A stretch of DNA of 33,113 nucleotides from a virus (Duplodnaviria; Heunggongvirae; Uroviricota; Caudoviricetes), in IMG/VR virus record IMGVR_UViG_2879770953_000003; one strand, given 5' to 3'. This document shows, piece by piece, positions 1 through 3,000 of the stretch. The position numbers were made by a program. Positions within the stretch are counted from its first letter, which is position 1. Every line of letters starts with the position of its first letter.

Positions 1-3000
1 CTATGGGATAAACTTATTTTTACCAATTGTATAAGGCGGTGCATAAGATTCTCGGCATGCTTCCAGATAATCCGACCACCACTGCATCATCGCTTTGCGG
101 GCTTCCAGGTGCTCTGCCTTATGAATATAAGCCATGCGCACGGTATTGCGCTCCTGATGACTCATCTGGCGTTCTACTGCGTCCTTTGCCCATAAACCCG
201 ATTCCATCAGCGCACTGCATGCCATTGCCCGGAAGCCGTGACCGCAGATATCCTTTTTCGTGTCGTAACCCATCACCCGCAGTGCCTTATTGACCGTGTT
301 TTCACACATTGGCTTATACGGGTTATGGTCGCCGGGGAAGATCAGTTCATTATTACCGGTGATATCCTTAATCTGTTTCAGAATGGCGATGGACTGTTCT
401 GAGAGGGGGACGATATGCGGCATTCGCATTTTTGCCCCGCGGCCGGAATAACGCACGCCAATAATGGGTTCTCGCGTCGCGGGTATCGTCCAGACTCGGT
501 TTGTGAAATCAATCTCTGACCAGCGGGCGAAACGCAGTTCACTGGAGCGAATGAACACATGCAGCATCAGCAGAACGGCATGCCGGGTCAGTTCACTGCC
601 CTGATGATATGCCCCAATACGTTCAAGCAGTTCAGGCAGCCGCTCCAGCGGCAGGGCAGGATAGTGCCGTCTGACAGGAGGTGTGGTCACGCCGCCAAGG
701 TTTGCTGCAGGGTTCGTATCGATTAACTCCAGATGGACCGCATGGCGCATTATGTTACTCAGGTGCTGCCGTGTGCGGGACGCAACCTCCAGCAGACCTT
801 TTTCCTCGATCCCTTTCAGCAGGTCAATGAAATGACGGGGTTTAAGTTCTGATACAGGTAGGTTCCCGATGACCGGAAAGATGTGATTGTTCAGGCTGGC
901 AAGCAGACGGTCGGCGGTGTTCTGCGACCATTTCCTGTTACTTTTATGCCACGCCAGCGCCACGTTTTTAAAAACTTTCTCCGGTGTTCGTGAGCCACGT
1001 TCAGCAGCCCGCTGCTGTACCGGGTTGATATTCAGCGCCAGCATTTTACGGATACCTTCACGTTGCTGTCGCGCATCAGACAGGGAGATGGCTGGATAGG
1101 CACCCAGCGCAATGCGGGATTCTTTACCGCTAATACGGTATTTGAGATACCAGTGGCGGGAGCCACCCGGCTTGACCAGCAGATACAGACCGTGAGAATC
1201 GGAGACTTTAAAGGGTTTATCAGAAGGCTTGAGGGTGCGGATTTTTGCGTCGGTAAGGGATATATGGGGGTCACTCCATTATCGAACTAACCTGATCCCA
1301 GATTTGACCACCAATTTTTCCCGATGCGTAGGGTAAAATCAAAATGCACCGAGAAGAGTTTTCACACTAACCTGTTGAATCAACATCAGATAAAGATTCG
1401 CAAGGATGCATGAAAACAGAAAATTGGCTCCTCTGACTGGACTCGAACCAGTGACATACGGATTAACAGTCCGCCGTTCTACCGACTGAACTACAGAGGA
1501 ATCGTGAGAACGGGGCGCATATTACTTAGCGGTACCTTGTCTGTCAACACTAAATTTCATAAGCCATTTCAATTGGTTAATTAATCTGCAAAGTTGTTAA
1601 TTAATGAACATTCGTCGCCGAAAACGAGTCTGTATCATTAGCGTGATGCAGTCTCTGCAAAGGATCTTGTTGATAAAATTGACAGAAACGTTGCCACAAT
1701 GAAGGGAAACGAGGAGCAAAAAGTTCTGGGGCGCTAAAGAAATATTCAGAAAGTACGGCAAAACATTCAGCAGGATCACTGGCAGCATAAGCATCAATGC
1801 TCGCCGCATTCTCACCAACTAATTCGATTTCTTCCTGAATGTTGTTCATTGCAGCATGAAGATCGTGTTCCCAGCCAGCAACCTCACGCAACGAAATAAA
1901 GGGAACTCCGCTGGCGCGATCGCCGTTACGGGTGTCCAGCTTATGAGCGACTTCATGAATAATCAGGTTAAAACCAGAAGCATCAAAAGAATCTTGTATA
2001 TCCAACCAGTTCAAAACGATAGGCCCTTGCTGCCAGCTCTGACCTGACTGAACAATACGTTGGTTATGCACCAGACCGATATCGTCTTCCCATTCATCAT
2101 CGACCACAAATGGCGCAGGATAAATTAAGACTTCATGAAAACCATCCAGCCATTCCAGTCCTAACTCCAGAACGGGCAGGCAAAATAGAAGTGCTATCCG
2201 GCAGCTTCTTAATGAATTCAGCTCAAAGCCCTGTAAAGGAACAAGCCGTTTTTGCTGTAAAAAACGTTCGGCAAGAGCGACCAATTTGCTTTGTTCCTGT
2301 TCTGTCAGACACGTTAAAAGGGGGATCGATAGTGCTTCCTGCCAGGGAAGGGCAGTTTGATGTGCTGATTCTTGTACTTTCCAGGGCCACTTAATCATCG
2401 TTTTGCTCGCAAACTCGTCACTTGAACAAAATTGCACGGACAGGGACTGTTAAAATGCCAAATTTCCTGGCATCATGGCAACCATCTGAGCGGAGAGATG
2501 CCGGAGCGGCTGAACGGACCGGTCTCGAAAACCGGAGTGGGGGCAACTCCACCGGGGGTTCAAATCCCCCTCTCTCCGCCAAAATTCAATCACTTATACA
2601 TCATTAAGTCAGTGACAAAAATCACACTTGGAATTACTTGGAATATTTTCTTGGAATATTTTCAGGTAACGGGACATCAAGTGTCGGTGAAACTTTAACC
2701 TTCCTGTCATAGATTAGCACTTGCCCCTCGGTTTTGTGACCAGAGAAAAGTTGCTTATCCCGACTGCTTCCTTCATAGTCTGAAATTCCTTTCGCCTTCA
2801 GATCATGAAAGGTGAAGTCGGTTAAAATACCTGAAATTTTGCCTGCGCGATTTCTTGCTTCTACCCACATTTCGTTAAAGCCTTTGTACATATATCGGTT
2901 GCCGTATTGATTGCTGATTACATAGGCGGATGTTGGTAACTGTTTTGCTTTTTCGATCGCCGCCTGTAATCGTGGACTCCATGCTTTTATCTGTTTTTTT

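Follow-up and report, generated by a model that had tools for sequence, protein, structure and literature searches.

A probable scar of the high-pathogenicity island beside a phiP27-like prophage at the serU-mtfA-asnT hotspot of Shigella flexneri-type DNA

The Yersinia high-pathogenicity island (HPI; PAI IV536) of Escherichia coli has asnT next to mtfA as its standard site of integration (PMC2606025). The far direct repeat is missing even from the usual form of the island in E. coli (PMC2606025), and according to Schubert et al. the asnT locus of E. coli strains without the island is clean and bears no sign of it (PMC2606025). In the UPEC strains 536 and CFT073, PAI-serU and PAI-asnT, the latter being the HPI, lie side by side, and according to the same review the HPI is rarely present in EIEC and Shigella (PMC7545054).

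The DNA analysed here, a stretch of 33,113 nucleotides that we call the window, is organized like the locus in 536 and CFT073: serU and asnT are both next to integrase-bearing elements and mtfA alone lies between them. The difference is that in the two UPEC strains serU is occupied by a 22-kb TcpC island and not by a phiP27-like prophage, and that their HPI is complete. With a query consisting of intB, the HPI integrase gene, and the end of the phage integrase gene, both parts were found at the correct spacing in 489 of 5426 complete E. coli genomes. Occupancy of both serU and asnT is already known, as are the kinds of element found here; only mildly new is the apparent HPI scar in S. flexneri, made up of intB and 99 bp beyond it.

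Two phages are also close to this locus. The integrase at asnT is like that of phage P4 in its three-domain architecture and in having the 3' end of a tRNA gene as target, but it belongs to a genomic island and targets an asn tRNA, whereas P4 is a satellite phage. P4 itself integrates at leuX. The element at serU is related to phiP27, an Stx2e phage that combines a lambdoid early region with a contractile tail. In the window, the genes for head, terminase, sheath, tube and tape measure share 94.5% identity with those of phiP27 (a match over 41% of the query).

Two integrases at adjacent tRNA genes

ARAGORN predicted two tRNA genes near the left end of the window: asnT, tRNA-Asn(GTT), at 1425-1500 on the minus strand, which is also annotated at the homologous position in K-12, and serU, tRNA-Ser(CGA), at 2492-2581 on the plus strand. 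The sole gene in the interval is mtfA (yeeI; 1601-2398, minus strand), a native backbone gene with a Peptidase_M90 domain (E = 3.4e-60) that is annotated as mtfA in L001, L002 and K-12. The order of genes in K-12 MG1655 is zinT-yodB-serU-mtfA-asnT-yeeJ, and the alignment of the window to this chromosome is confined to 1421-2597, the homology stopping 3-4 nt past the 3' end of asnT. Thus, the DNA is foreign from the 3' end of each of the two tRNA genes outwards. The integrase at asnT is of the P4 type and used a 17-bp core at the 3' end of asnT, the one at serU is of the lambda type and used a 62-nt repeat at the 3' end of serU; these two unrelated integrases mark two independent integrations at adjacent tRNA genes. 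A sequence-only reading of the window had placed a P4-family integrase 3' of tRNA-Asn and a prophage integrase 3' of tRNA-Ser, with only mtfA between the tRNA genes. This arrangement is borne out by ARAGORN, by Pfam and by the match to P4 Int, and the comparison with the serU-mtfA-asnT region of K-12, which that reading had proposed, indeed shows both flanks to be foreign. The same reading described two independent islands back to back. As far as the two unrelated integrases go, this holds; as a description of what they belong to it does not, since the left element is, as detailed below, almost certainly an orphan integrase and the right one a decayed prophage.

The DNA around this hotspot is of the S. 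flexneri type. Three chromosomes of 4.52 Mb (L003-L005) were retrieved by an exact match to the C-terminal 347 residues of IntB. Over its 1263 nt, intB is 100% identical in the window and in the S. flexneri chromosome L003; compared with L003-L005, window 1-3226 has a single mismatch and one indel of 13 nt, and window 4490-12324 is 99.85-99.97% identical to them. LR861785 and LR861788 are chromosomes of S. flexneri serotype 3a (PMC9455713). At its right end the window matches S. flexneri FDAARGOS_713 with 100% identity over the last 1.1 kb. These identities, together with the ipaH-family gene described below and the content of insertion sequences (five copies, namely two of IS600, two of IS1 and one of the IS66 family), identify the window, as judged from its sequence, as S. 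flexneri-type chromosome at the serU-mtfA-asnT hotspot. Among the 5426 complete E. coli genomes none is more than 99.6% identical to window 1-2700 or 1-1424, and the window's intB allele differs from the closest E. coli integrase genes at about 6 of 1424 positions. The window comes from a strain different from L003-L005, because these chromosomes have neither the IS600 in the phage integrase gene nor the 13-nt duplication that are described below. The 151-residue N-terminal fragment of the phage integrase that is fused to IS600 was matched only by contigs of at most 1.1 kb, with IS600 and IS1 at their ends, which are too short to inform on the left flank.

The HPI integrase and its left flank

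The gene at 1-1263 (minus strand) is intB, the P4-type integrase gene of the Yersinia HPI, as identified by translation, Pfam and nucleotide identity. A gap of 161 bp separates it from the 3' end of asnT, and translation gives a frame of 420 codons with zero internal stops. The domains Arm-DNA-bind_3 (PF13356, 8.5e-24), Phage_int_M (PF22022, 3e-24) and Phage_integrase (PF00589, 5.6e-20) were all matched above the curated cut-offs of Pfam. The identity to phage P4 Int (tblastn, X51522/NC_001609) is 48.7% at 99% coverage (E = 4e-122), and inspection of the translation by eye revealed right-looking catalytic motifs (IRSSELR, HGFRAM, AYIH). The lack of an internal stop, taken alone, is compatible with a still-functional element.

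At the nucleotide level, intB is 99.4-99.6% identical to the integrase gene that precedes ybtS in E. coli; in E. coli FDAARGOS_536 the neighbours of this gene are ybtS-ybtX-ybtQ-ybtP-ybtA-irp2-irp1-ybtU-ybtT-ybtE-fyuA. From such a match beside asnT to a gene followed by ybtS to fyuA, we conclude that the integrase of the window is HPI intB at the standard E. coli site. Several P4-like integrases are found at asn tRNA genes in E. coli, and 426 records match the window's integrase at just 60-80% identity, which would speak for an origin from another asn-tRNA island (pks/colibactin or another P4-like element). The chance of such an origin is, however, negligible: the gene and the 99 bp downstream of it are 99.4-99.6% identical to the integrase region directly before ybtS, and asnT beside mtfA is the very site of the HPI (PMC2606025).

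The window has the 17-bp sequence CCAGTCAGAGGAGCCAA at 1424-1440 (minus strand), at the 3' end of asnT; this is the attachment core of the HPI at its attL. CCAGTCAGAGGAGCCAA is the direct repeat known from the HPI literature. It has a single match in the window, where none is expected by chance. A second copy, as would mark the fyuA end of the island, is absent from the window, and the other copies in L003 lie only within asnW and asnU.

At the usual position of the intB start codon the window reads ATA. The same triplet is present in the HPI copies of E. coli, and the Klebsiella copy has ATG. ATA as a defect specific to the window was considered and rejected, because the E. coli copies share it. 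Altogether, the window has in common with the HPI of E. coli the integrase, the site at the 3' end of asnT beside mtfA, the 17-bp core and the ATA at the start position.

Since the window ends at the stop codon of intB, the DNA beyond was read in relatives that have the identical allele. In L003 the stop codon is followed by 99 bp of the HPI, a 1250-bp IS911 (11144-12393 of L003), shiA from about nt 624 onwards, amn, yeeN, asnW, yeeO, asnU and cbl; amn holds IS2 and IS1 insertions. The 99 bp are 99.4-99.6% identical to the sequence that leads into ybtS in E. coli. The IS911, like IS600 a member of the IS3 family, is 99.1% identical to annotated copies. It is flanked by ATT on one side and GGT on the other, without a target duplication, and such unmatched flanks fit a deletion by the insertion sequence, or recombination between two IS911 copies, better than a simple insertion. 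Relative to E. coli FDAARGOS_536, which has the HPI, L003 lacks about 35 kb: ybtS to fyuA, a yeeJ remnant, a gene for a family-9 glycosyltransferase and the 5' part of shiA. Unlike E. coli with the HPI, the S. flexneri relatives lack the yersiniabactin cluster along with about 5 kb of adjacent backbone and have IS911 at +99. They differ in the other direction from K-12 and from E. coli FDAARGOS_944, whose asnT is clean (in FDAARGOS_944 the site is empty and yeeJ is directly next to it), whereas the relatives carry the intB scar.

This truncation is found in every relative with the identical intB that was read. Five short-read contigs (L006-L010) all enter the terminal repeat of IS911 at +99, and in 24 of 24 contigs read with the window's allele only 99 bp of the HPI follow the stop codon. 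The yersiniabactin cluster (ybtS-X-Q-P-A, irp2, irp1, ybtU-T-E, fyuA) is absent after intB in the relatives with identical intB. In the sequence index, the allele occurs in 116 blocks, of which 104 have a longest contig below 2 kb and none has one of 5-200 kb; a repeat-free island of 30 kb beside intB would yield contigs of the latter size, which argues against an intact HPI. The junction of the integrase gene with IS911 is absent from all 5426 complete E. coli genomes. Neither this junction nor that of IS600 with the phage integrase gene had a match in the species-representative genomes of GTDB, in which Shigella probably has no separate representative.

Could a complete HPI of about 30 kb with the yersiniabactin genes nevertheless continue to the left, so that both tRNA genes carry full-size elements? 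Of the 5426 complete E. coli genomes, 2349 cover at least 80% of a query of intB plus its upstream region in one place, intB is followed by the entire ybt cluster in FDAARGOS_536, the E. coli genome that was examined, and the window's intB is without internal stop. But the allele is not that of these E. coli strains, from which it is separated by the six or so differences mentioned above; it is identical to the S. flexneri allele. The HPI of all inspected contigs with this allele ends at +99 at IS911, index blocks with contigs of the size expected of an intact island are lacking, and the HPI is rare in EIEC and Shigella (PMC7545054). We therefore regard a complete island as unlikely. Instead, the genome from which the window derives very probably shares the IS911 truncation, as suggested by the relatives with the identical allele, and the left element has almost certainly been reduced to a lone integrase gene beyond which the native backbone resumes, a remnant of the HPI rather than the HPI. 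The relatives are other strains, and the left flank of the window's own strain could differ from theirs. The sequence-only reading had a left island extending out of the window and named, as evidence to the contrary, an isolated integrase remnant with native backbone beyond. The latter is what the relatives with identical intB have: 99 bp of HPI and IS911, followed by truncated shiA, amn and yeeN.

An orphan IntB might have been kept because it still works, either in trans on elements linked to asn tRNA genes or as a domesticated recombinase. In favour of this are the 420-codon frame without internal stop, the presence of all three domains and the occurrence of the allele in many S. flexneri samples (the 116 index blocks). 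A young clonal lineage would, however, conserve the allele anyway, and ATA stands in place of the usual ATG, as in E. coli but not in the Klebsiella copy. Compared to one E. coli copy, intB has two synonymous and five non-synonymous differences; this gives no sign of purifying selection, but the sites are few and the changes unpolarised, so that we draw no conclusion from them. Neither a partner attachment site nor cargo was found. Continued function of IntB is, hence, very unlikely, and the integrase is better seen as left over from the HPI.

The prophage at serU

The right element starts with a 62-nt attL at 2520-2581 (plus strand) that covers the 3' end of serU and is repeated at attR. There is no second copy of the 62 nt within the window; in the S. 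flexneri relatives L020 and L022, attR lies about 350-410 bp past the position of the window's right end and is identical to attL in 60 of 62 positions. Homology to K-12, namely to the sequence downstream of serU, resumes exactly at this copy. The prophage therefore overruns the window by about 400 bp on the right. In the variable arm of serU, positions 2538 and 2549 are G and C in the window; in K-12 serU and in the attR copy they are A and T, a compensatory pair. That the working serU has G and C, and the attR copy the K-12 pair, indicates that the present 3' part of serU was supplied by the phage. The right element is a real integrated phiP27-like prophage at serU.

Its integrase gene is split. 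The C-terminal, catalytic part is at 2634-3225 (minus strand; Phage_integrase, E = 2e-11) and the N-terminal part at 4490-4926 (minus strand; Phage_int_SAM_3/4), collinear with the intact 345-residue integrase of L003. Between them lies an IS600 of 1264 bp (3226-4489, plus strand), as defined by its boundaries and by the target duplication ACG at 3223-3225 and 4490-4492. This IS600 is 99.8% identical to copies annotated as 'IS3-like element IS600' and is missing from L003-L005. The location of the prophage integrase 3' of tRNA-Ser had been correctly recognized from the sequence, but its interruption by IS600 had been missed. In addition, a 13-nt tandem duplication at 2638-2663, the indel relative to L003, alters the last residues of the integrase. 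The adjacent gene at 4926-5129 (minus strand) encodes a DUF4224 protein (PF13986, E = 1.7e-15) and is also found beside the integrase gene in L001 and L002; from its position, it is a putative excisionase gene.

The structural genes are shared with the serU prophage of E. coli FDAARGOS_944 (L002), with 99.4-99.9% identity and the same integration site. A first copy of IS1 (5517-6284, no target duplication) lies at the site of a deletion that reaches from exo to the replication genes: positions 5518 and 6285 of the window are equivalent to 10842 and 19742 of L002, and the DNA that L002 has between these two, about 8.9 kb with exo, dicB, immunity genes and replication genes, is absent from the window. 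The second copy of IS1 (28319-29086), inverted with respect to the first and again without target duplication, follows the tape-measure gene, and here the baseplate and fibre genes of the FDAARGOS_944 prophage are missing. A simple inversion between the two inverted IS1 copies was considered and rejected, since their flanking 9-mers pair in no arrangement; the unpaired 9-mers make deletions the better reading.

The late region has also taken up an element of the IS66 family (about 11135-15155), which is itself interrupted by a second IS600 (13069-14332, target duplication CTC). The open reading frames of IS600 are those of a two-ORF transposase with HTH_Tnp_1 and rve domains. At the distal end of the prophage, an open reading frame at 30160-31803 (minus strand) encodes a protein of the ipaH family (LRR and NEL E3 ligase); an identical protein of S. 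flexneri chromosomes has the Pfam assignments PF12468 and PF14496. The prophage of the window thus differs from phiP27 and from the FDAARGOS_944 prophage in its IS600-split integrase gene, in the deletion of about 8.9 kb of early DNA and of the baseplate and fibre genes, and in the presence of ipaH. An stx gene was not seen in the window's prophage. A complete inducible set of genes was looked for and is lacking, as the integrase gene is split and the immunity, replication and baseplate/fibre genes are absent. With its integrase gene interrupted by IS600 and with the deletions linked to IS1, the serU prophage is, by its gene content, apparently locked in place and defective, and has retained ipaH.

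A possible history of the locus

Taken together, the findings are accounted for, with good probability, by an HPI that suffered an IS911-linked deletion at asnT and by a phiP27-like prophage that entered serU and was later crippled. The HPI would have used its P4-type IntB to enter the 3' end of asnT. An IS911-associated deletion may then have removed about 35 kb, comprising ybtS to fyuA, yeeJ, the glycosyltransferase gene and the first 620 or so nt of shiA. Left over would be intB and 99 bp, so that the left 'island' would be an orphan integrase with nothing to move. In a separate event, a phiP27-like temperate phage entered serU and exchanged its last 62 nt for a copy of its own, giving rise to the direct repeat of attL and attR. 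In this prophage, IS600 split the integrase gene, deletions flanked by IS1 took the immunity and replication as well as the baseplate and fibre genes, and the IS66-family element, itself struck by the second IS600, settled in the late region. The anatomy of the window, its identity to S. flexneri and the truncation in all relatives with the identical intB are direct observations; the order and the mechanism of the deletion, as well as the presence of the same left flank in the window's own genome, are what we infer from the comparison with the relatives.

The scar implies that S. flexneri had an HPI-positive ancestor and that its lineage lost the yersiniabactin island along with yeeJ and a part of shiA. 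The genome of Shigella is well known to have been reduced by insertion sequences, and a loss of the HPI fits into this; a new mechanism is not implied. It is tempting to speculate that, in the descent of S. flexneri from such an ancestor, one IS911 event removed yersiniabactin, yeeJ and shiA, as a pathoadaptive 'black hole' or with a functional IntB being kept, but we consider this unlikely. If it were true, be it the single IS911 loss or the retention of IntB, the scar would be a lineage marker and would document the loss of a siderophore island in the evolution of Shigella. In the literature, we found no explicit account of an HPI intB remnant or of this deletion in S. flexneri; one S. flexneri intB sequence was used earlier in a published phylogeny (PMC2801613).

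For annotation, the locus shows that an integrase gene next to a tRNA gene is no proof of an island behind it, and programs that take it as the boundary of a prophage or island would overstate the mobile content here. ON470583.1, filed in GenBank as a 'phage', is laid out like the window and includes the HPI integrase gene.

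The two integrase genes and serU

At the position where the HPI gene intB usually starts, the window has ATA (1261-1263, minus strand). ATA is also found in intB of the HPI-positive E. coli FDAARGOS_536, for which PGAP annotated a 420-aa protein starting at this codon, whereas a Klebsiella copy of the gene has ATG at the start position. The first canonical in-frame start in the window is found at 1044, 73 codons further downstream. The ATA codon may have a bearing on the immobility of the E. coli-type HPI.

The variable arm of serU has a G...C pair at positions 2538 and 2549 of the working gene, and A...T is found in serU of K-12 and in the displaced attR copy of the S. 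flexneri relatives L020 and L022. The G...C is a compensatory pair that was delivered together with the phage copy of the 3' part of the tRNA. In its 3' tail, the prophage int contains a tandem duplication of 13 nt (CTTGGAATATTTT, present twice; 2638-2663), which shifts the stop of the gene from 2609 to 2634. E. coli FDAARGOS_536 and the GenBank phage record ON470583.1 share this duplication, the annotation of the gene being frameshifted in the former and intact integrase in the latter; the S. flexneri chromosomes L003-L005 lack it.

Prophage cargo and insertion elements

Downstream of the Q antiterminator gene, the prophage carries four tRNA genes (CAU, Lys-UUU, Thr-UGU and Gly-UCC; 10301-10610), the first of which was assigned to Met by ARAGORN and its homologue in E. 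coli FDAARGOS_944 to Ile by PGAP. The tRNA cluster is followed by an inserted IS66-family element with three ORFs (about 11135-15155), itself interrupted by the second IS600 (13069-14332) with a target duplication of CTC. The two IS600 copies of the window differ from each other at 4 positions.

Two copies of IS1 (5517-6284 and 28319-29086) lie 22 kb apart in inverted orientation and are 100% complementary. A 9-bp target duplication was found at neither copy, and both are located at end-points of deletions when the prophage is compared with that of FDAARGOS_944.

The distal end of the prophage harbors a gene for an IpaH-family E3 ligase of 547 aa with LRR_TTSS and NEL domains (30160-31803, minus strand), followed by a methyltransferase-like ORF (32119-32787). 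In S. flexneri chromosomes with this gene, an identical IpaH protein is encoded once more at another locus (L019/L021), which has the same gene neighbours.

Window boundaries and decay around the hotspot

Position 1 of the window lies exactly at the stop codon of intB and position 33113 at the exact end of a tail-fibre-assembly ORF. This looks like the output of a prophage caller, trimmed to gene boundaries, in which the HPI integrase was mistaken for the prophage edge.

In S. flexneri relatives, IS2 and IS1 are both inserted in amn and yeeO is split into two ORFs (amn/yeeO decay at 13278-14608 and 15800-16569 of L003). In L022 (7613-8283), about 1 kb including yodB is gone between zinT and the prophage attR. 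These changes add to the decay by insertion sequences and deletions around the serU-asnT hotspot.
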